Shown here: positions 16,280-43,699 of the stretch, piece after piece
Layout: every line of letters begins with the position of its first letter
Position numbering within the stretch: position 1 is the first letter of the stretch
Origin: an uncultured Syntrophobacteraceae bacterium
GTDB taxonomy: Bacteria > Desulfobacterota > Syntrophobacteria > Syntrophobacterales > Syntrophobacteraceae
Direction of reading: 5' to 3'
NCBI GenBank assembly: GCA_964603955.1
Contig: CAZRWT010000002.1
Location: 18,014-82,013, forward strand
DNA length: 64,000 nucleotides
Translations under genes and position numbers: made by a program
The notes under the pieces: generated by a model
What the model was told of the DNA's origin: nothing
The model's input: the letters and a program-made list of their open reading frames with translations, nothing else
Databases searched by the model: none

Positions 16280-16358
16280 ATATGCAACTTTCTTGTTCCC
16301 AAGCTCCAGCTTGGGAACACACTTGTCCGGAAGTTCCAGCTTCCCTTTTGAAAGGGGG
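16280..16358 (+). repeat. MITE-like element, copy B (left half only, truncated)
   Basis: ATATGCAACTTTCTTGTTCCCAAGCTCCAGCTTGGGAACACACTTGTCCGGAAGTTCCAGCTTCCC matches the left arm of copies A, D and E. The right half is missing, and the element abuts the Uma2 start. Confidence 0.75.
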
Positions 16359-16361
16359 AAA

Positions 16362-16937
16362 ATGATGGAAACCCCAGCGCGGGAACCCCGGTACTCTCCA
16401 GAACAGTACCTGGCCATGGAGCGAAGGGCGGACCACAAGAGCGAGTACATGGACGGTCGCGTGTTTGCCATGGCGGGAGCGAGCAGGCAGCACAACCAGA
16501 TAACGTTCAATCTCTCCGTGGCAATGGGGATTCAGCTCAAAAAACGGCCGTGTGTTGCCTATTCGAGCGATATGCGCGTTAAAGTGACCCAAACGGGTTT
16601 GTATGCCTACCCTGATGTCGTGGCCACATGCAATGAACCTCAATTCGAGGATTCCTTTTTGGACACTCTGTTGAACCCTCAAGTCATCATCGAGGTGTTA
16701 TCGGAATCCACGGAATCTTATGATCGAGGCAGCAAATTCGCCCACTATCGCAGGCTCGATTCGTTGCAGGAATATGTGCTCGTTGCTCAAAACGCAATGT
16801 GCGTCGAGCATTATGCACGCCGCAGGGAGAAATGGCTTCTTACGGAAATCAGCCTGTCGAGGGGAGAGCTTCATCTCCGATCCATTGGCTGCACCATACC
16901 CTTGACGGACATTTACGACAAAGTGCCTTTGCCTTGA
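16362..16937 (+). CDS. Uma2-family (DUF820) putative endonuclease
   Basis: Start at MMETPAREPRYSPEQYLAMERRADHKSEYMDGRVFAMAGASRQHNQI (GGGGGAA RBS). The pattern E..G.i..M.g....H and later EVLSEST...D...K...Y is typical of Uma2. Confidence 0.8.
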   Translation: MMETPAREPRYSPEQYLAMERRADHKSEYMDGRVFAMAGASRQHNQITFNLSVAMGIQLKKRPCVAYSSDMRVKVTQTGLYAYPDVVATCNEPQFEDSFLDTLLNPQVIIEVLSESTESYDRGSKFAHYRRLDSLQEYVLVAQNAMCVEHYARRREKWLLTEISLSRGELHLRSIGCTIPLTDIYDKVPLP

Positions 16938-19695: not shown

Positions 19696-21765
19696 ATGGA
19701 AGCTCATACCGTGTGCCGTCTTTGTTCGGCCTGCTGTCCCGTGACGGTCACCGTGGAAGAAGGAGAGCTGGTCCGGGCAAAGCGAAAATCCTTTTTGCCC
19801 CCTCATGAGAGGCTCCATTGTCCCAAGCTGGCCGCAGCCTCCGAAATCGTTTATTCCCCCGACCGTATTTTGAAGCCTCTTGTACGCAACCGCAAGGGCG
19901 CCTTCCAGGAAGCGTCCTGGGACGAAGCCCTGGGCCTCACGGCCGAAAAATTTGCCCATTTCAAAGCCGCCCATGGAGCCCGGTCCGTCGCCTGGCTGCG
20001 GGGCATGGCCGCCGACTGGGGGGCTCCCTGGGACTACGCAAACCGGCTCATGAACGCCTTCGGTTCCCCCAACACCATCGGCAACGGCTCCGTATGCCAT
20101 GTGGCTCGAGACATGGCCCATGTTTACACCTATGGCGCCATGACCCTGCCCCAGCCCAAGTCTTCCCGATGCATCGTCGTTTGGGGTAAAAACGACCGCA
20201 ACACCGCACCGGGAGCCTGCGAAGCCATCTTCCACGCCCGGAAGCAGGGTGCCCGGCTCATCGTCGTGGACCCCATCCGCACCCCCTTTGCCCAAGCCGC
20301 CGACATCTGGCTCCAGGTCAAGCCGGGCCACGACGGCCCCCTGGCCATGGCCATGCTCAACGAAATCATCGCCCGGGGGCTCCACGACACCCGCTTCGTC
20401 AGCCGGTACGGCCTGGGATTCGAAGCTCTCCAGGCGGCAGCGGCCCAGTTTCCCGCAGAAAAAGTCGCCCGCGAAGCCTGGCTCGATGCGGAAGCCATCC
20501 GGGAGGCAGCCCGCCTCTATGCCGTAACCAAACCCGCCTGCATCATCGACGGCAACGGCCTCGACATGCAGATTCATGCCTTCCAGGCCACCCGGGCCGT
20601 TTGCATGCTGCGAGCCGTGACGGGGAATCTCGACCTGGACGGCGGCGACTTCATACCCCAGCCCGTCCCCGCCCGCCCCATGCAACTCCGGGAGCGACTC
20701 TCCGCCGACGTCCTCCCCATCACGGCCGACCACCCCCTCTTCGACACCTTTCACCCCACCTGGGGCCGCCACTCTCAGTCCTGCCTGATCGATGCGATTA
20801 TTGAAGAAAAGCCTTACCCCATCAAGATGCTCGTCGTCCAATCGGGCAACCCGGTGGTGACCATGACCGATGCGGCCAGAGTGCATAAAGCCATGGAAAA
20901 ACTAGAATTCATCGTGTCGATCGATCTTTTTGTGAACCGGACCGCTCAAATGGCCGACGTGGTTCTGCCGGCATCGAGTTGTTTTGAAAAGACCCAGCTC
21001 AATCGAGCCTCCCTGCGCAACAGCCCGGTCATACTTCAAACCCGTGTCATCGAGTGCCTCGGGGAGAGCCGACCCGACTGGGAAATCACCTTCGATCTGG
21101 GGCGGCGCCTGGGACTGGTAGAAGAATTTCCCTGGCAAACGGTCGAGGAAGCCATTGACCACCAGCTGGCCCCCTCGGGCCTCACCGTGGCCGCACTGCA
21201 TGAGAACCCGGACGGCCTGCGCGCCGGCCCCCTCGAGTTCGAAAAGCACAAGACTGACGGCTTCGCCACGCCCTCGGGCAAAATCGAGTTTTATTCGGAA
21301 CGGCTGGCCCAGGCCGGACATCCGCCCGTTCCTTTTATGGACGGCACCTTCGAAGACCCCTTGAGCTTCCGGGAAGAATGCGGGGAAAACGCAATGATCG
21401 GCATGAGCGGTGAGCGTACAAGACACTTCACCCACACCCAGTTCTTCCGGATTCCGTCTCTCCGCAAGCAGGAGCAGGAGGGCTTCATCGACTTTCACCC
21501 TCGGGACGCTGCCGTAAGGGGCATTGCCGAGGGGCAGTGGGTGACGGCTTCCAATCCCCGGGGACGTGTCAGAATGAAAGCCCGCATGAGCGAGGAGGTC
21601 CACCCGGGTTCCATCAGGATCGGGTGGGGCTGGGGAGAACTCGATCCCGAAGCCAACGTCAACAACCTGACCGACGACGACCGCAGGGACCCCGTCACCG
21701 GCACTCCGGCCAACCGGGGATTTTTCTGTCGAATCGAACCGGACTCGCAAGGATCGAACACCTGA
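19696..21765 (+). CDS. molybdopterin-dependent oxidoreductase (DMSO reductase superfamily, cytoplasmic, substrate unknown)
   Basis: 689 aa. N-terminal FeS motif CRLCSACCPV...CPK and no Tat signal. The candidate Mo-ligand region is GSVCHVARD. The C-terminal beta-barrel domain motif is VRMKARMSEEVHPGSIRIGWGW. Confidence 0.8.
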   Translation: MEAHTVCRLCSACCPVTVTVEEGELVRAKRKSFLPPHERLHCPKLAAASEIVYSPDRILKPLVRNRKGAFQEASWDEALGLTAEKFAHFKAAHGARSVAWLRGMAADWGAPWDYANRLMNAFGSPNTIGNGSVCHVARDMAHVYTYGAMTLPQPKSSRCIVVWGKNDRNTAPGACEAIFHARKQGARLIVVDPIRTPFAQAADIWLQVKPGHDGPLAMAMLNEIIARGLHDTRFVSRYGLGFEALQAAAAQFPAEKVAREAWLDAEAIREAARLYAVTKPACIIDGNGLDMQIHAFQATRAVCMLRAVTGNLDLDGGDFIPQPVPARPMQLRERLSADVLPITADHPLFDTFHPTWGRHSQSCLIDAIIEEKPYPIKMLVVQSGNPVVTMTDAARVHKAMEKLEFIVSIDLFVNRTAQMADVVLPASSCFEKTQLNRASLRNSPVILQTRVIECLGESRPDWEITFDLGRRLGLVEEFPWQTVEEAIDHQLAPSGLTVAALHENPDGLRAGPLEFEKHKTDGFATPSGKIEFYSERLAQAGHPPVPFMDGTFEDPLSFREECGENAMIGMSGERTRHFTHTQFFRIPSLRKQEQEGFIDFHPRDAAVRGIAEGQWVTASNPRGRVRMKARMSEEVHPGSIRIGWGWGELDPEANVNNLTDDDRRDPVTGTPANRGFFCRIEPDSQGSNT

Positions 21766-29687: not shown

Positions 29688-29703
29688 TGTGATTGTAATC
29701 ACA
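29688..29703. promoter_or_regulatory. perfect TGTGA-N6-TCACA palindrome (CRP/FNR- or Rex-type operator candidate) about 100 nt upstream of hdrA-like gene 1
   Basis: Read directly: tt TGTGATTGTAATCACA tt, with 7-bp arms TGTGATT/AATCACA. Confidence 0.45.
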
Positions 29704-29802: not shown

Positions 29803-32800
29803 ATGTTCATGAATGAAAAAAAAGCATCTCAGCCAGTAACTGGCGCGGTAATGGTGGTTGGAGGCGGTATCGCCGGGGTGCAGTCGGCTCTCGATCTGGC
29901 GGAGTCGGGCTACTACGTTTACCTGGTGGAAAACAGCCCTTCCATTGGTGGTGTGATGGCGCAGTTGGACAAGACTTTTCCGACCAACGACTGTTCCATG
30001 TGTATCCTTTCCCCCAAGCTGGTGGAAGGGGGCCGTCACCTCAACATTAAACTCATGACCCTGTGCGATGTGGAAGCCCTCGATGGAGAGGCCGGCAATT
30101 TCACCGTGACGGTGAAGGAACGCCCGAGATACATCGATACGACAAAGTGCATCGCCTGCGGGGTCTGTGCCGAAAAGTGCCCCAAGAAGGTCGAGGACAC
30201 CTTCAATGAAGGCCTGGGACCTCGCAAGGCGGCTTACGTCAAGTATCCCCAGGCGGTTCCTCTCAAGTATGCCATCGACGAGGACAACTGTATTTATTTC
30301 AAAAACGGCAAGTGCCGCGCCTGTGAAAAGTTCTGTCCCGCCGGTGCTGTTGATTTCAATCAGAAGCCTCAGACGCACACCGTCCAGGTGGGTTCCGTCA
30401 TTCTCGCCCCCGGCTTCAAGGCCTTCAGCCCCGAAGTCTATGATACCTACGGTTTCGGGAAATATCCCAACGTGATCACCAGCATGCAGTTTGAGCGCAT
30501 CCTGAGTGCTTCGGGTCCCTTCGAAGGCCACCTGGTGCGTCCTTCCGACAAGAAGGAGCCCAAAAAGATTGCCTGGCTCCAGTGCGTGGGGTCCCGCGAC
30601 ATCCACCATGGGGCTCACGGCTACTGTTCCGGCGTGTGCTGTATGTACGCCATCAAGGAAGCGGTCATCGCCAAGGAGCATTCCAAGGAAGGGCTCGATA
30701 CGGCCATCTTCTTCATGGACATGCGCACTTACGGCAAGGATTTCGAGCGCTATTACAACCGGGCCAAAGGAGAGACGGGGGTACGCTTCATCCGGTCCCG
30801 TATCCACAGTGTGGCCACCCTTCCCGGTACCGATGACCTGGTGCTCGAATATGCCGACGAAAACGGTCAGCTTCAAAGTGAAGTCTTCGACATGGTGGTT
30901 TTGTCCATCGGCCTGGAAATCGGCGACGAACTGAAGAAAATGGCGGAAAGAATCGGAGTGGGGCTCGATGCCGATGGGTTTGCGCAAACGAGCTGCTTCA
31001 CGCCCGTGGCCACTTCGAAAGAAGGTGTTTTCGCCTGTGGCGCCTTTTCCGGTCCCAAGGACATTCCCTACTCGGTCATGGAAGCATCCGCGGCATCTGC
31101 GGCATCCGCCGCCCTGCTTTCTTCCGTGCGGGGCACCCTCACCCAGGAAAAGACCTACCCGGCCGAGGAGGATGTGGAAAAAGAAGAGCCGCGTGTCGGT
31201 GTTTTTGTCTGCCATTGCGGCATCAACATCGGCAGCGTGGTGAATGTTCCAGGGGTGAAGGAATATGCCCGGTCCCTCCCCGGAGTGGCTTACGTGGCGG
31301 AAAACCTTTTCACCTGTTCGCAGGACACGCAGCAGATCATTCGCGATGCCATCAAGGAACACAAGCTCAACCGCGTAGTGGTGGCGGCCTGTACGCCCCG
31401 CACCCATGAGCCCCTCTTCCAGGAAACCATCCGCGAGGCGGGCCTCAACCGTTATCTTTTTGAACTGGCCAACATTCGCGACCAGGATTCCTGGGTGCAT
31501 CAGGCCGAACCCGAAAAGGCCACGGAAAAGGCCAAGGACCTGGTGCGCATGGCGGTGGCCAAGGTGGCGTTGCTCGAACCTATCGAGCGCATGAGGGTCG
31601 ATTTGAACCAGGATGCCCTGGTGATCGGCGGTGGTGTTTCGGGCATGAGCGCCGCCGTGAACCTGGCGGACCAGGGCTTCAAGACCTACCTTGTCGAGGA
31701 AAAGCCCGAACTTGGCGGCCATGCCCTCAAGGTGCATAAGACCTGGAAAGGCGAAGATGTTGCTTCCTACGTCAAGGCACTGGTGGACAAGGTCGAAAAG
31801 CATGCCAATATCGAGGTGCTCAAGGGCGCCAAGGTGACCGATGTTTCCGGCTTCGTGGGGCAGTTCAAGACCACGGTGCAGACCGACGGCGCGGCTCGCG
31901 AATTGGAGCACGGGGTGGCCATTATCGCCACGGGCGCTCATTCCCTGGCTCCCGATCTGTACCTCTACGGTCAAAATGATCGCGTGAGCCGCTGGCACGA
32001 CTTGCAAAAAATGCTTGAGGAAGACCCCAAAAAGCTGGACGAGGCGGAAGCTGTGGCCTTCATCCAGTGTGTAGGGTCCCGCGAACCCGAACGTCCCTAC
32101 TGCTCGAAAATCTGCTGTACCGCTTCGGTGCAACAGGCACTGGACCTCAAGGCGAAAAAGCCGGACCTGGATGTTTACATCCTGTATCGCGACATGCGTA
32201 CTTACGGCGGACGGGAAGACCTGTACAAAAAGGCCCGCGAGCAGGGCGTTCTTTTCATTCGTTTCAACCAGGATGAAAAGCCGACCGTGGAAGCCGTGAA
32301 GGACGGCGGCAAGGAAAAATTGCGGCTCACCGTCAAGGACCATATCCTGGGGCGTCCCATCAAGATCGATGTGGATTACCTCAACCTGGCCACGGCCATC
32401 ATTCCCAAGGGCCAGGAAGAGCTGGCCAAGTTCTTCAAGGTGCCCCTCAATGAAGACGGCTTCTTCCTGGAAGCCCACATGAAACTGCGCCCGGTGGATT
32501 TTGCCACGGACGGCGTGTTCATTGCCGGTCTGGCGCATTATCCCAAGCCCATCGAGGAGTCCATCGCCCAGGCCCAGGCGGCGGCGGCTCGGGCATCGAG
32601 CGTGCTGGCCAAGCCCTATGTCGAGGTCGAGCCGGTTGTTTCCGTGGTGAACCAGGATATGTGTATCGGCTGCGGACTCTGTGAAGCTTCCTGTCCCTTC
32701 GGGGCCATTCGGCTGCACAAAATCGTCGGCAAGGGGTATCGAGCTGAAACCATTTCCGCATCCTGCAAGGGCTGCGGTGTTTGCGCCGCGTCGTGTCCCA

Positions 32801-32877
32801 TGAAAGCCATCGACATGATGCATTTCCGTGACCGTCAAATCTGTGCTGCGATTCGTGCGGGTGGTGCACGTCAATAG
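29803..32877 (+). CDS. hdrA: large HdrA-like flavoprotein (internally duplicated HdrA core; HdrL-like), Cys form
   Basis: 1024 aa. First FAD site VVGGGIAGVQSALDLAESG; second dinucleotide site VIGGGVSGMSAAVNLADQG. Two copies of the HdrA cluster motif are present: CVGSRDIHHGAHGYCSGVCC and CVGSREPERPYCSKICC. Several ferredoxin-type CxxCxxCxxxCP motifs. Confidence 0.88.
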   Translation: MFMNEKKASQPVTGAVMVVGGGIAGVQSALDLAESGYYVYLVENSPSIGGVMAQLDKTFPTNDCSMCILSPKLVEGGRHLNIKLMTLCDVEALDGEAGNFTVTVKERPRYIDTTKCIACGVCAEKCPKKVEDTFNEGLGPRKAAYVKYPQAVPLKYAIDEDNCIYFKNGKCRACEKFCPAGAVDFNQKPQTHTVQVGSVILAPGFKAFSPEVYDTYGFGKYPNVITSMQFERILSASGPFEGHLVRPSDKKEPKKIAWLQCVGSRDIHHGAHGYCSGVCCMYAIKEAVIAKEHSKEGLDTAIFFMDMRTYGKDFERYYNRAKGETGVRFIRSRIHSVATLPGTDDLVLEYADENGQLQSEVFDMVVLSIGLEIGDELKKMAERIGVGLDADGFAQTSCFTPVATSKEGVFACGAFSGPKDIPYSVMEASAASAASAALLSSVRGTLTQEKTYPAEEDVEKEEPRVGVFVCHCGINIGSVVNVPGVKEYARSLPGVAYVAENLFTCSQDTQQIIRDAIKEHKLNRVVVAACTPRTHEPLFQETIREAGLNRYLFELANIRDQDSWVHQAEPEKATEKAKDLVRMAVAKVALLEPIERMRVDLNQDALVIGGGVSGMSAAVNLADQGFKTYLVEEKPELGGHALKVHKTWKGEDVASYVKALVDKVEKHANIEVLKGAKVTDVSGFVGQFKTTVQTDGAARELEHGVAIIATGAHSLAPDLYLYGQNDRVSRWHDLQKMLEEDPKKLDEAEAVAFIQCVGSREPERPYCSKICCTASVQQALDLKAKKPDLDVYILYRDMRTYGGREDLYKKAREQGVLFIRFNQDEKPTVEAVKDGGKEKLRLTVKDHILGRPIKIDVDYLNLATAIIPKGQEELAKFFKVPLNEDGFFLEAHMKLRPVDFATDGVFIAGLAHYPKPIEESIAQAQAAAARASSVLAKPYVEVEPVVSVVNQDMCIGCGLCEASCPFGAIRLHKIVGKGYRAETISASCKGCGVCAASCPMKAIDMMHFRDRQICAAIRAGGARQ

Positions 32878-32963
32878 ATATCGATAGATAGCTGTTTTTT
32901 GAACCTCTTGAATCCTCCGGGGCCTTGCGGGGCTCCGGAGCCCCATGAAACAGGAGATGTGAA

Positions 32964-33722
32964 ATGAGTCAAACTTTCGAGCCGAAGATTCTGGCCTTCC
33001 TATGCAACTGGTGTGCATATGCCGGGGCCGACCTGGCGGGCGTGTCCCGCTTTCAATACCCGCCGACCATCCGGGTCATCCGCACCATGTGCTCGGGCCG
33101 CGTCGATCCCACTCACGTGGTGGAGGGGTTGAAGAGCGGCTTTGACGGTGTCTTCGTCTTTGGTTGACACCTCGGCGACTGTCATTACCTGGAAGGTAAT
33201 GTTTATACCCAGAAGCGTATGCGCGTTGTGTCCCGGTTGCTGGAACTGGCCGGTATCGGCAGTGACAGGATGCACCTGAGATGGGTGAGTGCCGCGGAGG
33301 GACAGATTTTCGCGGATTTTGTAAAGGAATTGAGCGCTGTCATCGGTGAAAAGGGCCCCTTCGATCCCAAGGAGCATCAGTTGAAGCTGGCCGCTGTGGA
33401 GGGAGCATTGAATTCTCCTCGCCTCAGGTGGCTTTTGGGCATGGATCGGCAGCTCACCGAGCGGGAGAATGTGTATCACCATAAGTTGGACGATGCGGCT
33501 TATGAGAAGCTGGTGGATCAGGCGACGGAAGAAGAGTATCAGAAAGCCATGATCCTGGAGGTTCTCAAGGATGGGCCGCAATCAGTGCGCGAAATCGCAG
33601 GCAAGAGCGGGCTGCCGATTTACACGGTGTCTCAGCTGCTCGGTGACATCGAAAAGGCCGGTAAAATCGAGTTTCACGGCTACGAAGGGACCACACCGAA
33701 GTTCATCAGGCTGGCGGCATAG
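32964..33722 (+). CDS. mvhD: MvhD-like protein with in-frame UGA (probable Sec at 33165..33167) and C-terminal winged-helix-like extension
   Basis: Track ORFs 32964..33167 and 33219..33722 share a frame, and the only stop between them is this TGA. VFVFG-TGA-HLGDCHYLEGN aligns to VWVSGCHPGDCHYIEGN of the paralog at 37032. The C-terminal region is ILEVLKDGPQSVREIAGKSGLPIYTVSQLLGDIEKAGKIEF. Confidence 0.8.
33183..33201 (+). other. putative bacterial SECIS-like hairpin for UGA 33165
   Basis: CATTACC tggaa GGTAATG: a 7-bp perfect stem starting 15 nt after the UGA, with a GG-containing loop. Confidence 0.55.
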
Positions 33723-33845
33723 GTCCGCGTGGTTTGTGTGATGGGGCGGACGCCGCGAGGGGAGGGGGCTTCGATACAGGTTCCCGGTCTTCGGGGTGCT
33801 GCCCGTAAACGCTAAAGTAGCAGAGGAAACGACAGCAGGATAAAA

Positions 33846-36800
33846 ATGATGAACGCTAGCAATAACAATAAAGTCGGCGCTGTAATGGTCGTCGGAGCCG
33901 GCATCGCCGGCATGCAGGCGGCCCTGGACCTGGCAGATTCAGGTTATTACGTCCATCTCGTGGACCGCTCACCCACCGTGGGCGGGATCATGGCTCAGCT
34001 GGACAAGACGTTCCCGACCAACGACTGTGCCATGTGAGTCATCTCACCCAAACTGGTCGAGGTCGGCCGGCATCATAATGTAAATATCATCACCAACTCT
34101 TCCGTTGATTCTCTGGAGGGGGAAGCTGGAAACTTTACGGCAAAGCTCAAAACTCAACCGAGGTACATCGATCCGCTGCGCTGCACCGGTTGCGGCGACT
34201 GCGCCAAGGTGTGCCCCGTGACAAGCGTCAACGAGCACAACTGTGGACTGGACAAGCGTGCGGCTACCTATATCCGCTATGCTCAGGCCGTGCCCCTGGT
34301 TTTTGCCATCGATACGGACATCTGTATCGGGTGCGGCCTTTGTGAAAAAGTGTGTCTGGCCCAGGCCATCAAGTACGACGATCAGGCCCGCTACACCGAA
34401 GTGAAGATCGGGTCCGTCATTTTGGCCACCGGTAACGACGTGTTCGATCCTTCTCATTTCGATACCTACAGCTACGCTCAACTTCCCAACGTGATCACCA
34501 GTATGGAGTTCGAGCGTATTCTCAGTGCTTCCGGTCCTTATATGGGCCATCTCATGCGGCCCTACGACCGGGAAGAGCCCAGAAAGGTCGCCTGGTTGCA
34601 ATGCGTGGGTTCCCGAGACACGCACCACTGTGACAATCCCTACTGTTCGGGCGTGTGTTGTATGTATGCCATCAAGGAAGCCGTCATCGCCAAGGAGCAT
34701 TCGCACAGCGGCATGGAGGCGTCCATCTTCTATATGGACATGCGCACTTACGGAAAAGACTTCGAGCAGTATTACGACAAGGCCAAGGAAGAAGGCGTGC
34801 GATTTATCCGGTCGCGCGTCCATTCGGTGGAACCGGTGGGGGATGGAGACCTCGAAATCACCTATGCGGATGAAACCGGCCAGGTCAAGCAGGAAGTGTT
34901 CAACCTGGTGATCCTTTCCGTAGGGTTCCAGGTAGGGAAGGAAGGCATCGAGCTTGCTGAAAAGCTTGGTATCGACCTCAATGAAAACCGTTTCGTCAAA
35001 ACCGACAGTTTCACCCCCGTGGCCACTTCGCGGGAAGGTGTGTATGTCTGCGGAACCTTCCAGGGTCCCAAGGACATTCCCCAGTCCGTGATGGAAGCAT
35101 CGGCGGCGGCGTCGGCATCCAGCCTCCTTTTGAGCGACGCGCGCTGGACCGAAGCCACGGTCAAGGAAAAGCCCACGGAAAGAAATATCATCGGTGAACG
35201 CCCCCGCATCGGCGTGTTTGTGTGCCAGTGCGGTATCAACATCGGCGGCATCGTGAACATTCCCAAGGTGCGGGAATATGCCCGTACCCTGCCTTATGTG
35301 ACTTATGTGGAAGACAATCTCTATACCTGTTCCCAGGACACCCAGGTGAAAATGGCCCAGGTGATCAAGGAACAGGGGATCAACCGCGTGGTGGTGGCTG
35401 CCTGTACGCCTCGTACTCACGAGCCTCTCTTCCAGGAGACTCTGGCCAACGCGGAACTGAACAAGTACCTCTTTGAAATGGCCAACATTCGAAACCAGGA
35501 TTCCTGGGTGCATTCGGGCGATCCCGTGAAAGCCACGGAGAAAGCCATGGACCTGGTGCGCATGGCCGTTTCCAAGGTAGCCCTCCTCGAACCCCTCAAG
35601 GAATCGGAACTGGGAGTGACGAGGAAGGCCATGGTGGTCGGCGGCGGTGTTGCCGGCATGGTGGCGGCCAAGGAACTGGCGGACCAGGGGTATCCCGTGT
35701 ACCTCGTGGAGAGGTCTGCACAGTTGGGCGGCCAGGCGAGGAAGCTGTTCCAGACCTGGAGGGGCGAGAGCATCCCGGCCTATGTGGATGAGCTGGCCAA
35801 AGAAGTGGAAAACCACCCCAACATCACGCTTTACCTGAACAGTGAACTGAAAAACGTGGACGGGTTTGTAGGGAATTTCAAGTCTACCATTCAAAACGGC
35901 GGTGAACCGGAACTCGTCGAGCACGGGGTCACCATCATCGCCACGGGTGGTCGAGAACTGCAACCCGAGGAATATTGCTATAAAAAACATCCCCGTATCG
36001 TGACGCATCAGGAACTGGATCAGCGGTTCGCTGAGAAAGATCCCAGTCTCAAGAGCATCAACAGTGCCGTTTTCATTCAGTGCGTGGGCTCGCGAGAACC
36101 TGACCGTCCCTATTGCAGCCGAGTTTGCTGCACCCATTCCGTGGAGAGCGCTCTCGAGCTGAAAAAGCTCAATCCCGAAAGTGATGTGTATGTGCTCTAC
36201 CGGGATATGCGGACTTACGGGGAACGTGAATTGATTTACCAGGAAGCCCGCAAGAAAGGTGTGATCTTCATCCGCTACTCCCTGGACAACAAGCCCCAGG
36301 TGGAAGTGGTGAACGACAAGGTCCAGGTGACCGTGTTCGATCCCATCCTTCAGCGGCCCATCCGTGTGGTGAGTGACCTGGTGACGCTGGCGACGGCCAT
36401 CCTTCCCAATGAAACCGATGCCCTGTCTCAGTTTTTCAAGGTACCGGTCAACGCGGAAGGGTTTTTCATCGAGGCCCATGCCAAGCTGCGTCCCGTGGAT
36501 TTCTCCACGGACGGTGTGTTTTTATGCGGTCTGGCCCACTATCCCAAGGCCATTGACGAGAGCATCGCTCAGGCCAAGGCTGCGTCGGCCCGCGCCGCGA
36601 CCCTCCTGGCTCGCGACTCGATTTTCTTCAGTGGGATGGTGGCCTACACGAGGCCCATCGATTGCAGCAGCTGCGGGGTTTGTGTGAGCATCTGCCCGTT
36701 CAGTGCGCCGCGTTTCATCGAGACGGGGCGGGATGCGGGCAAGGCGGAAATCAACCCGGCTCTTTGCAAGGGCTGCGGGCTTTGCGTGGCTTCGTGCCGT

Positions 36801-36866
36801 TCGGGTGCCATCGGGCTGCGAGGCTTCGATGACTCCCAGATTTTTGCCATGATCGATAATGTTTGA
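33846..36866 (+). CDS. hdrA: large HdrA-like flavoprotein, selenocysteine form (UGA at 34035..34037)
   Basis: Track ORFs 33846..34037 and 34209..36866 share a frame, and I read no other stop between them. [21 protein letters not shown] aligns to FPTNDCSMCILSPKLVEGG of the paralog at 29803. The rest is collinear with paralog 1 ([37 protein letters not shown]). Confidence 0.85.
34053..34070 (+). other. putative bacterial SECIS-like hairpin for UGA 34035
   Basis: CTGGTCG aggt CGGCCGG: a 7-bp stem including 2 G-U pairs, loop AGGU, starting 15 nt after the UGA. Confidence 0.5.
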
Positions 36867-37031
36867 TCCATTCTTCGAGCCTTTTTTTTCATGGGCGGAT
36901 GAAGTCGGACTTCCTCTGCCCATGGCTCGGTTTGAGAGAGAGTTTGAAACGAGCTGAAGCCCTTTTGGAAAGTTGGAGCACAATCGAGCGCGAGTGTCGC
37001 TTCAGTTTCAGTTTGAAATAGGAGAACTTAC

Positions 37032-37463
37032 ATGTCCGATTGGGAACCGAAAATCGTAGCCTTCCTGTGCAACTGGTGTTCGTATGGGGCGGCGGACCTC
37101 GCAGGCGTCAGCCGCATGCAGTATCCGCCGAACTTTCGTGTCATCAGAGTACCTTGTACAGGTCGAATCAATCCTAAATTCATTCTTTCCGCCCTGCGTC
37201 ACGGCGCGGATGGGGTATGGGTGTCCGGATGCCACCCCGGAGATTGCCATTACATCGAGGGGAACCTCTACGCGCGCCGGAAATTTGCCCTTTTGAAAAA
37301 CATGTTGGAGCATATGGGCATCGAGCCCAAACGTCTCCATTTTTCATGGATTTCTTCCGCGGAATCCACCAAGTTTGCCGATGTGGCTCGCGAAGTGATC
37401 CGTACGGTCAAGGAAGCAGGTCCGGCTCGACATTTCATCAAAAAGCAAGCTGAGGTGGCGTAG
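37032..37463 (+). CDS. mvhD: MvhD/FlxD-like protein (methyl-viologen-reducing hydrogenase delta subunit family), Cys form
   Basis: 143 aa. Motifs KIVAFLCNWCSYGAADLAG, RVPCTGR and VSGCHPGDCHY. Confidence 0.88.
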   Translation: MSDWEPKIVAFLCNWCSYGAADLAGVSRMQYPPNFRVIRVPCTGRINPKFILSALRHGADGVWVSGCHPGDCHYIEGNLYARRKFALLKNMLEHMGIEPKRLHFSWISSAESTKFADVAREVIRTVKEAGPARHFIKKQAEVA

Positions 37464-38414
37464 ATGCAAGCATATACCGAACGGATTCGAGAGGCGGCGA
37501 AACGCTTGTTGAGTGAGGGCAAGGCGGATGTGGTGATCGGATTTCGCAAGGGCACCATTCCCTTCATGAACGAGCCCTACCTTGCCAAAACGGCCGAACA
37601 GGTCGATCAGCTCATGTGGGACGGCAACTGTGGTGTGAACCTCGCCAATTATCTCACCAAGAGGACGGATCGCGTTGCCGTTGTGGCCAAGGGGTGCGAT
37701 TCGAGAAACATCGTGGAGCACATTGTCGAGAACCAGGTCAAACGCGACAACCTCCACATCATCGGAGTCCCCTGCAAGGGGATGATCGACAAGCGTCGCA
37801 TCAACGGCGAACTCAAGGGCAAGGAGCCTTTGACCGTCGAGGAAACGGAAAAGGAAATTCAGATTAAGGGCCGTGACTGGAACTTGACGCTGGATCGTAA
37901 GGAATTCCTCCAGGAAAATTGTGCCATCTGTATCCACCGCAATCCCGTCATTTACGATGAGCTGGTGGGTGACCTGGTGGAGGAGCAGAAAGACGTTGAT
38001 CGTTACGCCGACGTGAGGAAGATCGAGGCCATGGGTGCCGAGGAGAAATGGAAATATTTCGACGATCTCATCTCCGGGTGCATCCGCTGTTATGCCTGCC
38101 GCAACGCCTGTCCGGCATGCTATTGCCCGACCTGCTTCGTGGATGAGTCGCGGCCTCAGTGGGTGGGAAAATCCACTGATCCCACCGACACGCGCACCTT
38201 TCACTTTTTGAGGGCTTACCACCTGGCGGGGCGTTGTACCGATTGCGGCTCCTGTGAGAGGGCCTGTCCCGTGGGCATCAAGGTACGCCAATTCAATAAG
38301 AAGCTCGAGAAGGACGTCAAGGAACTGTTCGATTACGAAGCCGGGATCAACCCGGATGTGCGCCCGGCTCTCGACTTCTATCGACCCGATGATCCCCAGG
38401 GATTCATCAAGTGA
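37464..38414 (+). CDS. 4Fe-4S cluster protein (FlxB/FlxC- or FrhB-related)
   Basis: 316 aa. The start ATG directly follows the mvhD stop. Motifs CIRCYACRNACPACYCPTC and CTDCGSCERACP. Confidence 0.7.
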   Translation: MQAYTERIREAAKRLLSEGKADVVIGFRKGTIPFMNEPYLAKTAEQVDQLMWDGNCGVNLANYLTKRTDRVAVVAKGCDSRNIVEHIVENQVKRDNLHIIGVPCKGMIDKRRINGELKGKEPLTVEETEKEIQIKGRDWNLTLDRKEFLQENCAICIHRNPVIYDELVGDLVEEQKDVDRYADVRKIEAMGAEEKWKYFDDLISGCIRCYACRNACPACYCPTCFVDESRPQWVGKSTDPTDTRTFHFLRAYHLAGRCTDCGSCERACPVGIKVRQFNKKLEKDVKELFDYEAGINPDVRPALDFYRPDDPQGFIK

Positions 38415-38557
38415 TCCCGTCTCCCGGCCGGCGGCGTTTTGCGTCGCGGTACCCATGGAGACGCATGAATGTATGGACCTTGTTGGACCTGGGAGCGGCT
38501 TTTTCATCCAACAGTCGATCACGGGTAGAAGAACTCTGCTGAAAAAGGATTGAATTC

Positions 38558-39604
38558 ATGTCGGAAATTTATATCTCCAAAGAAAAATTTCCAGAAGTCG
38601 TAGGACAGCTCATGAGCCGCGGTCGTGTCTATGGACCCGTGTTTCAAGGGATGTATCATGAGTTTGCCCGGCTGGAGAAACCGGAAGACATAGACCTCGG
38701 CTTTCAGAACACGCGCCTTTCGCCAAAGGAGCTTTTTCATCCTCAATGTGAAAGGATGTTCACCTATTCCCTGGCCAAGGACGATCCCGAGTGTTGCATC
38801 GTCAAGGAAGCTCCCAAGGATTACTCGCCTCGAGTGGTTTTGGGCATCCGTCCCTGTGACGCCAAGGCGTTTCAACTGGACGACTGCAACTTCGACACGG
38901 AAACCATCAAGGACCCCTGGTGGGTGGAAAGAAGAAAAACCACCACCCTGGTGGGGCTTGCCTGCAACACCCCTTGCAACACCTGTTTTTGTACCACGGT
39001 GGGTACCGGCCCCTTCGATACATCGGGACTGGACGCGCTCATGGTGGATGTGGGAGACGGCTATGTGATCCGTGCCGTCACGGACAAGGGCAAAGAATGC
39101 ATCGGGGCCGTGAAGGGCGCTCAAGCGGTGCCGACCCCCGCCGCAGAAAAGGAAGCCCAGCTCAAAAAAGCGGCCGAGGACGGCATGGGCCAGGTATTCG
39201 ATATGAAGCCCATCTACGAGAAAAAGACCCTGGACCTTTTCAACGATCCCCTTTGGGATGAGGTCCAGTTCGCGTGCATCAACTGCGGAACCTGCACTTT
39301 TGTATGCCCCACCTGCTGGTGCTTCGACATTCAGGACGAAGTTCAGGGAGATGCGGGAGACCGCTTGAAAATGTGGGATTCCTGCATGTTTCCCCTGTTC
39401 ACCTTCCATGGGTCGGGTCACAATCCGCGCTCTCAAAAGCTTCAGAGGGTTCGGCAGCGGTTCATGCACAAGCTCAAGTACTATCCCGAAAAGTACGGAA
39501 ACGGACCGACTTGCGTGGGTTGTGGTCGCTGTGTGAAGTCCTGCCCGGTCAACATCGACATTCGACATGTGGCTCGCCTCATGTCCGCAGCCTGCAGTTG
39601 TTAG
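38558..39604 (+). CDS. 4Fe-4S dicluster protein (AsrA / sulfhydrogenase-beta / FlxB/C-like)
   Basis: 348 aa. Motifs CINCGTCTFVCPTCWCFD and CVGCGRCVKSCP. Positioned directly upstream of an AsrB/HydG-like flavoprotein. Confidence 0.7.
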   Translation: MSEIYISKEKFPEVVGQLMSRGRVYGPVFQGMYHEFARLEKPEDIDLGFQNTRLSPKELFHPQCERMFTYSLAKDDPECCIVKEAPKDYSPRVVLGIRPCDAKAFQLDDCNFDTETIKDPWWVERRKTTTLVGLACNTPCNTCFCTTVGTGPFDTSGLDALMVDVGDGYVIRAVTDKGKECIGAVKGAQAVPTPAAEKEAQLKKAAEDGMGQVFDMKPIYEKKTLDLFNDPLWDEVQFACINCGTCTFVCPTCWCFDIQDEVQGDAGDRLKMWDSCMFPLFTFHGSGHNPRSQKLQRVRQRFMHKLKYYPEKYGNGPTCVGCGRCVKSCPVNIDIRHVARLMSAACSC

Positions 39605-39634
39605 ACCTGCGCGCTCATAAATGGAGGAACGAAG

Positions 39635-40477
39635 GTGAGGAATCCTTATCTGCCTTATCCTGTCCGTATCGAGTCCATCGTGACGGAAACGGAAGATCGC
39701 AATCTCAAGACGTTCAAGTTCGTCTTTCTCAACAAGGAAGACGAAGAGAGCTTCAAATACATTCCCGGCCAGTTTGCCGAGCTTTCCGTGCCGGGCCAGG
39801 GCGAAATCCCCATCGGTATCGCCTCGTCCCCCACGGAAAAAGGCTTCATCATGTTCACGGTCAACAAGGTGGGGAAGGTATCGAGCTACATGCACAACAT
39901 GCAGGTCGGCGACATCATGGGTGTGCGCGGCCCCCTGGGCAACTGGTACCCCTGGGAAACGCTCGAGGGCAAGAATATCGTCATCATCGGCGGTGGTTTT
40001 GCCTTCACGACCCTGCGCTCGTCCATCGAGTACATGTTGCAGCCCGAAAACCGCTCCCGTTTCGGGAAGATCGACGTGGTTTACGGCGCCCGGACCCCCG
40101 GCCTTTTGCTCTACAAGGACCAGTTGGCGGCCTGGGAACAGCGGGACGACATCGACATGCACATCACCGTGGATTCCAGCAACGACCCCAACTGGAAGTA
40201 CAACGTGGGTTTCGTGCCGGCGGTGACCAAGGAGAAGGCCCCGAGCGCGGAAAATTCCTACGCCATCATCTGCGGGCCCCCCATCATGATCAAGTTCACC
40301 CTGCCGGTGCTGACCGAACTGGGATTCCCGCCCGAGCGGATCATTTCCAGTCTCGAAATGAGGATGAAATGTGGCATCGGCATTTGCGGTCGCTGTAACC
40401 TGGGGACCGAGTATGTTTGTAAGGACGGTCCCGTTTTCACGTTGGAAAAGCTTTCCCAGTTGCCCAACGAGTATTGA
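39635..40477 (+). CDS. FAD/NAD(P)H-binding oxidoreductase with C-terminal 2Fe-2S (AsrB / HydG / PyrK / FlxA-like)
   Basis: 280 aa, GTG start with GGAGGA RBS. Motifs FKYIPGQFAEL, VIIGGGFAFTTLRS and a C-terminal CGIGICGRCNLG. Confidence 0.8.
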   Translation: MRNPYLPYPVRIESIVTETEDRNLKTFKFVFLNKEDEESFKYIPGQFAELSVPGQGEIPIGIASSPTEKGFIMFTVNKVGKVSSYMHNMQVGDIMGVRGPLGNWYPWETLEGKNIVIIGGGFAFTTLRSSIEYMLQPENRSRFGKIDVVYGARTPGLLLYKDQLAAWEQRDDIDMHITVDSSNDPNWKYNVGFVPAVTKEKAPSAENSYAIICGPPIMIKFTLPVLTELGFPPERIISSLEMRMKCGIGICGRCNLGTEYVCKDGPVFTLEKLSQLPNEY

Positions 40478-40641
40478 TTTCGAGCATTGTTTTTTGCTGT
40501 GAAGCCTCGTGCATTGTCCTCGAGCCGGGGGCGATGCGCGGGGAAGACGTCTCACGGAAAAAGTGCTTCAAATGAAGAGTACCGTGTGTTATAGGCTTTA
40601 AGCGAGCCATCTACTTGAAAAACATTTCAGGGGAGAGAATT

Positions 40642-41862
40642 ATGGAGCCATTGCTGTTGACAAAGCGCGATAAGCGCAAACTGGCGAGCCAATACGCCGA
40701 CCTGTGCCTCACCTGTGGCACTTGTTCCGGTGGCTGTCCGGTCACAGGTGTTGACGGCCTGGATGTGCGGAAAGTCGTGCGCCTGGCCTTGCTCGGGTTG
40801 GATCAGGAAGTGATCGACTCGAAATTTCCTTGGGTTTGTACCCTCTGTGGACGGTGTGAGCACGCATGTCCCATGAACATCGACCTCCTTGCCCTGCTGC
40901 GGTCCGCCCGTAGCAAAAGAGCCAGGGACAAGGTGCCCGGTGTGCTGCACAAGGGTGTCGAGATGTGCTTGAAGACCGGCAACAACGTGGGCATTCCCAA
41001 GGATGACTTTGTCTTCCTGCTGGAAGATCTGGGAGTGGAGTTGGCCGAGGAACTGCCGGGTTTCGAGGTTCCCGTGGACAAAAAGGGAGCCAAGTACCTT
41101 TTCACCATCAATTCCAAGGAACCCTTCGCCGAACCCGAAGACATGATGTACTGGTGGCGTATCCTGTATGCCGCCAATGAATCGTGGACGGTGCCGTCGG
41201 AAAACTGGGAAGGTGTCAACTGGGGTCTGTTCACTGGTGACGACGAGGCCATGAAGGAAATCGTCGGACGCCTGGTGAAGAACTACAAGGAACTCGAGTG
41301 CGAGTACCTTGTCTTACCCGAATGAGGCCACGCTTACTATGCGACCAGGCTTGGTCTGCAAAAATGGTATGCCGACGAAGGCGTCAAGTTCCTCAGTATT
41401 CATGATCTCCTCACTTCGTATGTGAAAGAGGGTCGGATTAAACTGGACAAGACGATTCATCATCATCTGACCACGTATCACGATCCTTGCAACTATGCGC
41501 GTAAGAGCGAGCGCACTTTCGGCCACGGCTACTACGAGGAGCCCCGTTGGGTGACTCAGCAGTGCTGTGAGAATTTCGTGGAAATGTATCCCAACCGCGC
41601 CAACAATTTCTGTTGCGGTGCCGGCGGCGGTGCCTGGGCTTCCCCCTACGTGGAAGAGAGAATCTTCTACGGCAGGACCAAGGCCAAACAAATCAAGGAC
41701 ACCGGGGCCAAGCTGCTCATCGCTCCGTGTCACAACTGTCGTGACCAGATCATGAAGAGCCTCCGCAAGGAGTACGATTTTGAAGATGTAGAAGTCAAAT
41801 ACCTCTGGGAGCTGGTGGCCGACTCTTTGATCATCGAGCCCCGCGAGGAAGCCGAAGAATAA
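40642..41862 (+). CDS. fused HdrC/HdrB-type (HdrD/DsrK/GlpC-like) Fe-S protein with in-frame UGA (probable Sec at 41323..41325)
   Basis: Start at MEPLLL (GGGAGAG RBS). N-terminal ferredoxin motifs CLTCGTCSGGCP and CTLCGRCEHACP. Track ORFs 40615..41325 and 41422..41862 share a frame, and the only stop between them is this TGA. The C-terminal CCG domain reads DPC...CCGAGGG...PCHNC. Confidence 0.72.
41341..41359 (+). other. putative bacterial SECIS-like hairpin for UGA 41323
   Basis: GCGACC aggctt GGTC(t)GC: 6 bp with one bulge, a GG-containing loop, starting 15 nt after the UGA. Confidence 0.4.
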
Positions 41863-41891
41863 AGATTGTTCGGTTGACTCCATGAAACGAA

Positions 41892-41935
41892 AGCCCCAGA
41901 ATCGCGCCGTCGGCGTGTGCATGGGGCTTTTTTTT
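41892..41935 (+). terminator. intrinsic terminator after the hdr/flx-like operon
   Basis: AGCCCCA ...23 nt... TGGGGCT followed by an 8-nt T-run. Confidence 0.6.
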
Positions 41936-41964
41936 GCCCTCTCAACCACAAATCAAGTGTGGGT

Positions 41965-43188
41965 ATGAAAAAGAAACGAGACACCAAAAAAGCAAAAAAG
42001 AGCAGCGTGACTCTCTCCCGGGAAGACCAGCTCGAGTTGCAGATGATCCTGGATCGCCTTTCCGTCCAGAATCCTGATGGAGAGAGCTTCCATAATTACC
42101 TGGAATCGCTTGCGGGAATCCTTGGGAACCGGGAGGAATTCACTCTCGCTTTCCTGGAAGATTTGAGTAGGAAGCCCACGGTGGCGGGATTCAAAGTGTT
42201 CCAAAAGCTGAAGGATATTGTGAGGGGATCGGATAACAAGAGAGCCGTGAGGCAGGCGGCCTACAGGTTCGAGCAAAAAGGTTTTACCGTGGACGAGGGG
42301 AGTGAGGCTCGAGAAAAAGTTGTACTGGTTTCCAAAGAAGAGCGCAAAGCGGCGGCTCACCTCATTTCCATGGGAGGGACTTTCGGTTTTGTGGCAGCCA
42401 TCGTTCCGATCGAGGGTTATCCTGTTCCCATGGCTTTGACCGTTTACGCGCATGTTGCATCGGAAGCCATCAAGGCAAGCGTGACTCAGAGCTCCCACAG
42501 TGTTTATCGGGATTACCTGCGGATGGTTGCCGGAGAAGTTCCTGGATCAAATATCTGTGAGGTGCCCATCAGCCATGCGGCTCGTTTGGTGTTCGAATTG
42601 CCGGATTTGCTCGGGAGGCATGGGTATGTGGTCGAACTGGAAAGGGCTAAGGAACTCCTGAAACCCTACCATGATCCTCAAAAACCTCCACATATTCATG
42701 TTTTGATGGAAAAAATCGAGCATCCGGGCGAGGCGATACGGGCGGTTCGTATCCGGGAACTGATGGAGCACCTGGACCTTTCATGGCTCTTGTTTTCCCA
42801 GGAAGAACTGGCACCGTATCGCGATGATCTGGAAAGTTCGCGCAGCACCGTGCTCGTGCTGTCGACGGATATCATGCAGGATCGCACACAAGCCTTGTTG
42901 AAGCGGGCAGCCGACTCCTTGTGCGTCGGCAATAAAAAGCATTTCTACATCCGCTTTTTCGAAGAACAGGCACTGGTGTTTTATCTTTCCGGCATGATGA
43001 ATGCCGCTAAAGACGCCTGGATCACGGCACAACACCTTGCATCGGATCTGCCGCCCGGTGAAAATCCTGTTGTCGTCCAAGTGATTCTCTCGTCCATACA
43101 TGAACACTGGCCGGAAGCAAGCGAAGTGGCGCAGGAAGAACCGGAGCCTTACGAAACGACCGATTCAGGGTTGCTGATTCTGCGGTGA
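41965..43188 (+). CDS. hypothetical protein (no recognisable domain)
   Basis: 407 aa from MKKKRDTKKAKKSS. Coding-like composition. Located after a terminator and before yjbQ. Confidence 0.55.
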   Translation: MKKKRDTKKAKKSSVTLSREDQLELQMILDRLSVQNPDGESFHNYLESLAGILGNREEFTLAFLEDLSRKPTVAGFKVFQKLKDIVRGSDNKRAVRQAAYRFEQKGFTVDEGSEAREKVVLVSKEERKAAAHLISMGGTFGFVAAIVPIEGYPVPMALTVYAHVASEAIKASVTQSSHSVYRDYLRMVAGEVPGSNICEVPISHAARLVFELPDLLGRHGYVVELERAKELLKPYHDPQKPPHIHVLMEKIEHPGEAIRAVRIRELMEHLDLSWLLFSQEELAPYRDDLESSRSTVLVLSTDIMQDRTQALLKRAADSLCVGNKKHFYIRFFEEQALVFYLSGMMNAAKDAWITAQHLASDLPPGENPVVVQVILSSIHEHWPEASEVAQEEPEPYETTDSGLLILR

Positions 43189-43300: not shown

Positions 43301-43699
43301 ATGTTGGAAACCATTCAGGTCAATACTCCGGATCACGGTGTCATGGTGGATATCACCGATCTCGTGTCCCATAGGGTCAAGGAAAGCGGCGTGCAAAGCG
43401 GAATCTGCATGGTTTATGTGCCGCATACCACTGCGGCAGTAACCATAAATGAGGGTATCGATCCAGATGTCATGGACGACATCCTCAAAACCCTGGATAA
43501 GGTGATTCCCTGGCGCGCCGGTTACAAGCACACCGAGGGCAATTCGGCGGCACACATTAAGGCCATGCTGACGGGTGGGAGCTGTCACCTCATCATCGAC
43601 GGAGGACGCCTGATGCTGGGTACCTGGGAGCGTATTTTCCTGTGTGAGTACGATGGGCCGAGAACCAGGAAAATACGGATCAAGATCATGAGAGATTGA
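43301..43699 (+). CDS. yjbQ: YjbQ-family protein (UPF0047, secondary thiamine-phosphate synthase)
   Basis: 132 aa. Motifs GICMVYVPHTTAAVTINE, HTEGNSAAHIKAML and GTWERIFLCEYDGPR. Confidence 0.88.
   Translation: MLETIQVNTPDHGVMVDITDLVSHRVKESGVQSGICMVYVPHTTAAVTINEGIDPDVMDDILKTLDKVIPWRAGYKHTEGNSAAHIKAMLTGGSCHLIIDGGRLMLGTWERIFLCEYDGPRTRKIRIKIMRD

Follow-up and report, generated by a model that had tools for sequence, protein, structure and literature searches.

The stretch of DNA analysed here, 64,000 nucleotides (nt) of contig CAZRWT010000002.1 from an uncultured Syntrophobacteraceae bacterium (hereafter the window), contains a cluster of eight genes related to the heterodisulfide reductase (Hdr) and Flx genes of Desulfovibrio. 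All eight lie on the forward strand between positions 29803 and 41862, and three of them are selenoprotein genes (Table 1). An initial annotation, made from the sequence alone, had described the last six genes as a tightly spaced operon. These six genes are real and co-oriented, but the proposed extent missed the two co-oriented genes directly upstream, hdrA1 (29803-32877) and mvhD1 (32964-33722). The spacing is tight only in part because the spacers from hdrA2 to hdrD measure 165, 0, 143, 30, and 164 nt; flxC abuts mvhD2. Searches with Pfam and NCBIfam profiles agree with the families first assigned to all of the genes, including the three in the middle, and the order hdrA-flxDCBA-hdrD is indeed inverted relative to that of FlxABCD-HdrABC in Desulfovibrio. 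Both selenoproteins predicted within 33846-41862 were verified (hdrA2 and hdrD), and the third, mvhD1, lies upstream of that range.

Table 1. Features of the Hdr/Flx cluster and its flanks. Positions are counted from the first nucleotide of the window; aa, amino acids; Sec, selenocysteine; FeS, iron-sulfur; SECIS, selenocysteine insertion sequence.
Feature	Positions	Strand	Description
CRP/FNR-type palindrome	29688-29703	+	TGTGATTGTAATCACA; perfect TGTGA-N6-TCACA, 100 nt before hdrA1
hdrA1	29803-32877	+	1024-aa fused double HdrA, Cys form (NDCSMC)
mvhD1	32964-33722	+	252-aa long MvhD/FlpD, Sec, in-frame TGA 33165-33167 (GUHLGDCH)
SECIS-like hairpin in mvhD1	33183-33201	+	Folding and third-position conservation
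hdrA2	33846-36866	+	1006-aa fused double HdrA, Sec64, in-frame TGA 34035-34037 (NDCAMU)
SECIS-like hairpin in hdrA2	34053-34070	+	Folding and third-position conservation
mvhD2 (flxD)	37032-37463	+	143-aa MvhD/FlpD [2Fe-2S] adaptor, Cys form
flxC	37464-38414	+	316-aa 2x[4Fe-4S] protein, truncated FdhB/FrhB-like connector
flxB	38558-39604	+	348-aa AsrA/HydB/ShyB-like FeS subunit
flxA	39635-40477	+	280-aa FAD/NAD(P)H-binding subunit with [2Fe-2S] site, AsrB/HydG-like
flxA-hdrD spacer elements	40505-40595	+	Hairpin 40505-40543 without U tract; then TTCAAA (40567-72), 17 nt, TGtTATAGG (40587-95)
hdrD	40642-41862	+	406-aa HdrC+HdrB fusion, DsrK/HmcF/TmcB type, in-frame TGA 41323-41325
SECIS-like hairpin in hdrD	41341-41359	+	Folding and third-position conservation
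Intrinsic terminator	41889-41935	+	GC-rich hairpin, then eight U
Conserved gene after cluster	41962-43188	+	408 aa, syntenic; candidate only for system membership

The HdrA proteins encoded by hdrA1 and hdrA2 are 57% identical over their full length. Within HdrA2, the N-terminal half aligns to the C-terminal half with 30% identity over 251 amino acids (E 1e-23), and each half carries one GxGxxG site and one CxGSR(D/E)...CC motif, which bears out the internally duplicated protein of about 1000 residues that had been proposed. Canonical methanogen HdrA is a protein of about 650 amino acids that comprises an N-terminal domain, a thioredoxin reductase (TrxR) domain harboring an inserted ferredoxin domain, and a ferredoxin domain at the C-terminus. 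Every one of these domains is found in HdrA2, but they adopt a permuted double arrangement that spans 1006 amino acids. Residues 14-433 make up a TrxR domain that carries the inserted ferredoxin domain, residues 449-580 correspond to the HdrA N-terminal [4Fe-4S] domain, and residues 590-1004 comprise a second TrxR domain together with the ferredoxin domain of the C-terminus. In alignments to methanogen HdrA, residues 449-623 cover the N-terminal [4Fe-4S] domain and the start of the second TrxR domain, and residues 836-1004 cover the end of that domain as well as the C-terminal ferredoxin domain. The NCBIfam profiles HdrA2 and HdrA match the protein with 969 bits (cut-off 1100) and 709 bits (cut-off 1400), respectively.

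The DC(A/S)M(C/U) motif is retained by the first half of HdrA2 only and the N-terminal domain is present once; Sec64 aligns with Cys197 of HdrA in PDB 5ODC. In methanogen HdrA, Cys197 is a ligand to the cluster in the partner protomer's N-terminal domain, and fused HdrAs lose Cys197 and the N-terminal domain in a complementary manner (PMC9012536). Because Sec64 occupies the Cys197 position, a single N-terminal domain remains, and fused HdrAs exhibit this complementarity, the fused HdrA probably forms the equivalent of a heterodimer by itself, and its low-potential branch would include Sec64. A fused HdrA is also found in the class II benzoyl-CoA reductase complex (BCRII) of Geobacter metallireducens, where it is called BamE. 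Its bifurcating FAD resides in the first TrxR domain (Lys280), its non-bifurcating FAD is associated with Gln768, and its Cys59-Cys62 pair adjoins the low-potential cluster (10.64898/2026.04.10.717634). When compared by published residue numbers rather than by alignment, these residues have counterparts at nearly equal positions in both proteins of the window: Cys61/Sec64, Lys277, and Glu767 in HdrA2 and Cys64/Cys67, Lys285, and Gln777 in HdrA1.

The products of mvhD1 and mvhD2 match the FlpD profile with E-values of 2e-48 and 7e-56, respectively, and a weak DprA_WH match in the former corresponds to a C-terminal winged-helix-like extension. The cluster-motif position of mvhD2 (GCHPGDCH) is Cys in Syntrophobacteraceae and TGA (Sec) in most Desulfobacterales orthologs. 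FlxC, for which a database search returned >6600 homologs, contains Fer4_8 and a weak FrhB_FdhB_N match in Pfam; its profile matches FdhB of the Fdh-Hdr supercomplex (7bkb_E, E 9e-26) in the N- and C-terminal parts, with the middle part lacking. FlxB contains Fer4_22 (E 7e-35), matches the ShyB, HydB, and AsrA profiles, and resembles the beta subunit of Pyrococcus furiosus sulfhydrogenase I (9nez_B, E 9e-42). FlxA resembles the gamma subunit of the same enzyme (9nez_C, E 7e-56) and matches the HydG and AsrB profiles; it has the FAD/NAD(P) domains and [2Fe-2S] site of an FlxA protein in the form of FAD_binding_6 (PF00970), NAD_binding_1 (PF00175), and DHODB_Fe-S_bind (PF10418). The FeS subunits FlxB and FlxC and the MvhD-like FlxD thus lie beside hdrA, as they do in Flx-Hdr systems.

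The likely start codon of hdrD is ATG 40642 instead of TTG 40615, as judged from the ortholog in Syntrophobacter fumaroxidans; residue numbers given below count from TTG 40615, and subtraction of 9 yields the numbering from Met10 (ATG 40642). HdrD contains Fer4_8 and CCG domains, and its best NCBIfam matches are HmcF, TmcB, and DsrK, all with scores under cut-off (196.9 vs 750, 187.4 vs 735, and 164.4 vs 400). The motifs of these three proteins are present: two CX2CX2CX3CP cubane motifs (Cys31/34/37/41 and Cys75/78/81/85), one CXnCCGXnCX2C motif (Cys292/333/334/372/375), and the sequence P-E-U237-G-H (Sec228 from Met10), in which Sec replaces the Cys of the (G/T)ECGH motif. The cubane region aligns to HdrC and the C-terminal CCG motif aligns to the C-terminal CCG motif of HdrB, and for the degenerate N-terminal CCG region no sequence alignment to HdrB or EtfD was obtained. 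One fused HdrC+HdrB protein therefore stands in place of a separate HdrC and an HdrB with two CCG motifs. The fusion proposed in the initial annotation is confirmed, but the type must be revised because one intact CCG motif is characteristic of DsrK.

In DsrK, HmcF, and TmcB, each of which has a single CCG motif, the Cys of (G/T)ECGH is strictly conserved and has been proposed to be catalytic in reduction of DsrC-trisulfide (PMC10861901). The Sec position of HdrD corresponds to a nearly invariant Cys in Cys-type homologs, and a paralog reads TECGH. The Sec at the ECGH Cys, the single CCG motif, and the near invariance of this Cys in homologs argue that HdrD is probably a soluble subunit of the DsrK kind, a thiol/disulfide (trisulfide) reductase whose active site contains Sec. 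No gene for a membrane cytochrome b partner is found in the cluster. An AlphaFold2 (AF2) model of HdrD (pLDDT 83.6) resembles HdrB, HdrC, and EtfD, and its best match is EtfD of Mycobacterium smegmatis (E 1.6e-13, TMq 0.67). An N-terminal helix-turn-helix (HTH) domain is present in most full-length database homologs of HdrD.

Selenocysteine is usually retained at catalytic redox residues. Each of the three in-frame TGA codons of the cluster is conserved in relatives. The hdrA codon, in the context TNDCAM-U-(V/I)IS, is kept in about 50 loci and is replaced by Cys in loci L037 and L074 and in the in-window paralog hdrA1. The hdrD codon (LPE-U-GHAY) is found in 14 of the 14 loci with hdrD and is replaced by Cys in Cys-type homologs, and the mvhD1 codon is likewise conserved in relatives with Cys at that position in mvhD2. 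Hairpins with G in the loop begin 15-18 nt past each TGA. Third-codon-position identity within the hairpins reaches 0.97-1.0 in HdrA (48 distinct sequences) and 0.96-0.97 in MvhD (65 distinct sequences), compared to 0.4-0.7 in the flanks of both; for HdrD (13 distinct sequences), the values are 0.87-1.0 and ~0.7, respectively. The HdrA hairpin also shows compensatory C-G to U-A changes. This suppression of synonymous change indicates constraint at the RNA level, as SECIS elements would impose. Searches against Rfam returned nothing at the gathering score, and the window contains no tRNA gene. Sec-containing HdrA, HdrL, HdrD, and MvhD proteins were catalogued previously in Desulfobacterium autotrophicum (PMC2702500).

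A survey of gene order in relatives, proposed as a check in the initial annotation, was carried out on 80 related genome loci, with the counts of gene order taken over evaluable loci. The order mvhD-flxC-flxB-flxA is kept in 59 of 60 loci and hdrA lies immediately 5' of mvhD-flxCBA in 53 of 56; hdrD follows flxA in 11 of 54, which argues that the Flx-HdrA core works without hdrD in most lineages. When S. fumaroxidans and truncated loci are included, hdrD is found in 14 loci, which come from a group resembling Syntrophobacteraceae and from a small number of other genomes of uncultured deltaproteobacteria. The pair of hdrA1 and long mvhD is present in five loci (L001, L004, L005, L006, and L021). 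About 1.4 kb of sequence appears as a gap in the HdrA gene of 19 loci, an insertion that both HdrAs of the window lack. In Desulfosarcina widdelii (L071, 5068-9552), the gap corresponds to a ~475-aa glutamate-synthase/NfnB-like insertion within the inserted ferredoxin domain of a Sec-containing, 1494-aa protein of the HdrL type. A further ten loci have a ~3-kb gap at the HdrL insertion position. We considered whether hdrD and the NfnB-like (HdrL) insertion are mutually exclusive alternatives; this idea was rejected, as L008 and L016 carry both.

The same eight genes in the same order are found in S. fumaroxidans MPOB, where the HdrA1 ortholog has 1021 amino acids. This cluster was named Hdr/Flox (Sfum_1969-1977) by Sedano-Nunez et al. 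(2018), with HdrD noted to take the place of HdrBC and hdrA to occur twice (PMC5947623). The cluster type has thus been described already, and the cluster of the window is its syntenic ortholog. The two share 69-91% protein identity, the three TGA positions, and a trailing gene of unknown function followed by a YjbQ gene; the window differs in its longer spacers and its uncultured Syntrophobacteraceae host, and no functional difference is visible in the sequence. FlxC shows 75% identity with the homolog in S. fumaroxidans and 87-88% with proteins from uncultured Syntrophobacteraceae, and the closest sequences to the window come from sludge and digester metagenomes. Locus I of D. reducens contains a comparable set of Flx-like genes, mvhD, and hdrD (PMC4759654). 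In Desulforhabdus amnigena (L084, 7495-15524), we observed hycI, a Cys-HdrD fused to HTH_17, a fused Sec-HdrA of 1023 amino acids, MvhD, MvhG, and MvhA. This Cys-HdrD, with its N-terminal HTH domain, is 57% identical to HdrD of the window. Because D. amnigena joins the same kind of core to MvhG/MvhA hydrogenase genes, the core of HdrD, fused HdrA, and MvhD is, as judged from gene content, modular: its predicted input is Flx in the window and a [NiFe] hydrogenase in D. amnigena.

The palindrome upstream of hdrA1 is the single perfect match to TGTGA-N6-TCACA in the window. Among 83 related loci, this motif has 7 perfect matches, all ~100-150 nt 5' of the first hdrA of the cluster; it constitutes a putative CRP/FNR-family operator of the cluster's main promoter. 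The intrinsic terminator reported initially at the end of the cluster combines its U8 tract with a strong fold (-26.9 kcal/mol, z -4.1) that 0 of 200 shuffled sequences equaled. The mvhD1-hdrA2 spacer (33723-33845; 123 nt, -53.5 kcal/mol, z -3.6) contains no terminator, and its length in relatives is 16-125 nt. RNA contigs of a relative that is ~92% identical cross the mvhD2-flxC and flxB-flxA junctions. Co-transcription of the cluster is weakly supported because the RNA comes only from this relative and from one very thin run. The flxA-hdrD spacer (40478-40620) folds at -52.7 kcal/mol (z -3.2). We rejected its hairpin as a conserved RNA structure, since zero consensus pairs were found; a conserved promoter-like motif was seen instead. 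This motif follows an A-run and is kept in the window and in L001, L004, L005, L007-L010, and L017. Its position behind a strong hairpin and the failure to detect HdrD in the S. fumaroxidans proteome suggest that a promoter of its own may additionally drive hdrD, which may be regulated apart from the Flx genes.

We interpret the region 29803-41862 as encoding a soluble NAD(P)H-linked, HdrA-type complex for flavin-based electron bifurcation (in reverse, confurcation) that is orthologous to Hdr/Flox of S. fumaroxidans, and we place the probability of this reading at roughly two in three. The Flx/Hdr assignment made at the outset fits the profile matches of every gene as well as the literature on the syntenic S. 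fumaroxidans ortholog. Judged by sequence, the whole complex is probably an NAD(P)H:ferredoxin/DsrC bifurcating enzyme that is possibly reversible. In the model that we propose, FlxA would serve as the entry point, oxidizing NAD(P)H by means of its FAD and [2Fe-2S] cluster. FlxB and then the FdhB-like FlxC would relay the electrons to MvhD/FlxD, the [2Fe-2S] adaptor, from which they would enter the fused HdrA at its C-terminal ferredoxin domain and arrive at the flavin of the first TrxR domain (Lys277, cf. BamE Lys280). The low-potential electron would pass the Cys61/Sec64 pair, the internal N-terminal domain with its [4Fe-4S] cluster, and the inserted ferredoxin domain to reach ferredoxin. 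The high-potential electron would take the CxGSRD...CC cluster to HdrD and its clusters, two cubane and one non-cubane, along with Sec228 (from Met10); HdrD would then reduce a disulfide or trisulfide on a protein, most likely DsrC. The hdrA1/mvhD1 pair would either supply the same complex with a second bifurcating module or provide an alternative isoform.

Several observations weigh against this interpretation. In the survey, hdrD is scarce behind flxA, and it has a promoter-like motif and a hairpin of its own. HdrD has a single intact CCG motif, compared to two in canonical HdrB/HdrD, and the closest solved or characterized HdrD-like modules (M. smegmatis EtfD, TM 0.67, and BamD) exchange electrons with electron-transferring flavoprotein (ETF) and do not reduce a disulfide. 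A gene for DsrC is absent from the window. HdrD (Sfum_1969) and Sec-HdrA (Sfum_1974) were undetected in the S. fumaroxidans proteome (PMC5947623). Finally, the function of FlxABCD-HdrABC rests on the genetics of Desulfovibrio vulgaris, as cited in PMC5947623 and PMC4759654.

The cluster might instead encode two separate enzymes: HdrA1(Cys)-MvhD1(Sec), which would have partners elsewhere or act as an isoform that swaps with HdrA2, and HdrA2-FlxDCBA-HdrD, which would be the Flx-Hdr complex proper. The restriction of the hdrA1-mvhD1 pair to just five examined loci points in this direction, and in Desulforhabdus sp. TSK an HdrA1-type gene lies directly 5' of mvhD2-flxCBA-hdrD, so that the two HdrA types look interchangeable. 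In S. fumaroxidans, moreover, the Flox proteins and the Cys-HdrA (Sfum_1977) were detected under all growth conditions and were accompanied by no other HdrA of the cluster (PMC5947623). On the other hand, the putative CRP/FNR-type operator is confined to the region upstream of hdrA1, and in relatives the terminator-free mvhD1-hdrA2 spacer is reduced to 16-67 nt. There is one Sec per HdrA/MvhD pair, which indicates that neither pair is a selenium-free back-up, and BCRII shows that hierarchical assemblies of several modules occur. We regard two separate enzymes as possible but somewhat unlikely.

A further alternative concerns direction. The enzyme may run in the confurcating mode in vivo, with reduced ferredoxin and a reduced thiol carrier (or other donor) driving reduction of NAD(P)+ and the carrier being recycled in syntrophic propionate oxidation. 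Confurcation by Hdr/Flox was proposed in the study that examined the S. fumaroxidans proteome (PMC5947623). The host of our cluster is a relative within the Syntrophobacteraceae, as reflected by the 75-88% identity of FlxC to proteins of this family, and the sludge and digester origin of its nearest sequences is in keeping with such a life style. However, direction cannot be read from sequence, and genetic studies of Flx-Hdr in D. vulgaris, to the extent that they are cited in PMC5947623 and PMC4759654, point to oxidation of NADH. We view a confurcating role in vivo as tentative and rather doubtful.

A third proposal is that HdrD is not a disulfide/trisulfide reductase at all, but an electron output/input module for a carrier such as ETF, as is BamD, in which case the complex would couple NAD(P)H, ferredoxin, and ETF/menaquinone. 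In BamD of BCRII, the heterodisulfide pocket is blocked by His230, Trp325, and Tyr356, and the protein reduces ETF (10.64898/2026.04.10.717634). HdrD of the window also has His at 230 (ATG numbering), a likeness to BamD that rests on published residue numbers, and this proposal would account for the HdrD model matching EtfD best in structure and for the resemblance of the fused HdrA and long MvhD to BamE and BamF. However, the Sec of HdrD replaces the ECGH-type Cys that is tied to thiol chemistry in DsrK, HmcF, and TmcB (PMC10861901). BamD of G. metallireducens has a Cys-to-Ser change in the distal cluster site, whereas the position in the window is Cys/Sec and nearly invariant, and no etf genes lie within the window. 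We consider a function as an ETF module to be unlikely. The most ambitious version of the bifurcation model, in which all eight genes specify one hierarchical BCRII-like machine, with two HdrA modules on one Flx module through the short and long MvhDs, a soluble DsrK-like HdrD that pairs one non-cubane cluster with Sec to form a selenenylsulfide like that of ferredoxin:thioredoxin reductase, and DsrC-trisulfide reduction fed directly from NAD(P)H so as to bypass membrane-bound DsrMKJOP, strikes us as improbable.

In comparing the predicted bifurcating complex with other known systems, we noted both shared and distinct features. FlxABCD-HdrABC of D. vulgaris Hildenborough contains the same FlxA/B/C/D families and HdrA and lacks a hydrogenase or formate dehydrogenase (FDH); its proposed reaction is bifurcation of electrons from NADH to ferredoxin and DsrC (Ramos et al. 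2015, as cited in PMC5947623 and PMC4759654). The window differs in its inverted order, its fused double HdrA, and a DsrK-type HdrD with a single CCG motif in place of HdrB+HdrC, and it has in addition three selenoproteins and a second hdrA-mvhD pair. BamDEF shares with the cluster a fused HdrA, a long winged-helix MvhD with Sec, and an HdrD-like output subunit. The tungsten-containing BamBC and the NuoEFG-like BamGHI have no counterpart, as no AOR-type or NuoE/F-type genes lie within the window, and Flx would act as the NAD(P)H module. The Sec sites also differ: BamF has Sec19, whereas the window has MvhD1 Sec68, HdrA2 Sec64, and one more in HdrD. HdrD shares with DsrK, HmcF, and TmcB the two cubane motifs, the single CCG motif, and the conserved ECGH Cys (here Sec), but it is predicted to be soluble, is encoded beside HdrA/Flx genes without a membrane cytochrome b partner, and scores below the family cut-offs. 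The methanogen complexes HdrABC-MvhAGD and Fdh-Hdr (5ODC, 7BKB, 8RVU) have the same HdrA domains and cluster motifs, an MvhD adaptor, and an FdhB-like connector. In the window, by contrast, HdrA is a permuted fusion, a single protein combines HdrB and HdrC with loss of one CCG motif, and the predicted input is NAD(P)H instead of H2 or formate; CoM-S-S-CoB is not an expected substrate of this complex.

Upstream, the next neighbor of hdrA1 is a phosphofructokinase gene on the opposite strand. Downstream, the 408-aa gene trails the cluster in 11 Syntrophobacterales loci, two of them without hdrD. Its product has no match in Pfam or NCBIfam, and its AF2 model (pLDDT 82) has no fold match in the PDB. 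A YjbQ/UPF0047 gene (43301-43699) comes after it, as in S. fumaroxidans. Profile searches of the 64-kb window found no hydrogenase, ETF, or DsrC/TusA-like gene, in agreement with earlier statements that neither a hydrogenase or FDH partner nor a DsrC-like thiol/disulfide partner is encoded there. The sole molybdopterin enzyme of the window (19696-21765) was considered as a hidden FDH partner and rejected, since 8 kb and a set of biosynthetic genes on the opposite strand separate it from the cluster and it scores below every family cut-off. This oxidoreductase of 689 amino acids appears cytoplasmic, with no signal peptide visible at its N-terminus, and its scores against the PhsA and FdhA profiles are about equal, both below cut-off. 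Elsewhere, a NapC/NirT-type tetrahaem gene followed by a gene for a multihaem protein that has CxxCH as well as CxxCK motifs (9786-11756) looks like an NrfH/NrfA nitrite reductase. Genes between 11925 and 18453 resemble those for 2-oxoglutarate dehydrogenase E1, E2, and E3, as judged from translations only, and an ORF of 244 amino acids without identification (16203-16937) sits between the E2 and E3 genes.

Complexes of the Flx-Hdr type are thought to be a main route by which sulfate reducers and syntrophs balance NADH, ferredoxin, and DsrC, and to our knowledge no variant with HdrD and a fused HdrA has been purified so far. The locus brings no new kind of system, but it sharpens several points that can be tested. 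The selenocysteine of HdrD points to the ECGH residue as the place where a soluble DsrK-like subunit probably has its active site, and that of HdrA would mark the Cys197-type cluster ligand on the low-potential branch. The conserved CRP/FNR-type operator, together with the internal promoter-like motif ahead of hdrD, suggests a mode of regulation. S. fumaroxidans is a cultured carrier of the orthologous cluster.

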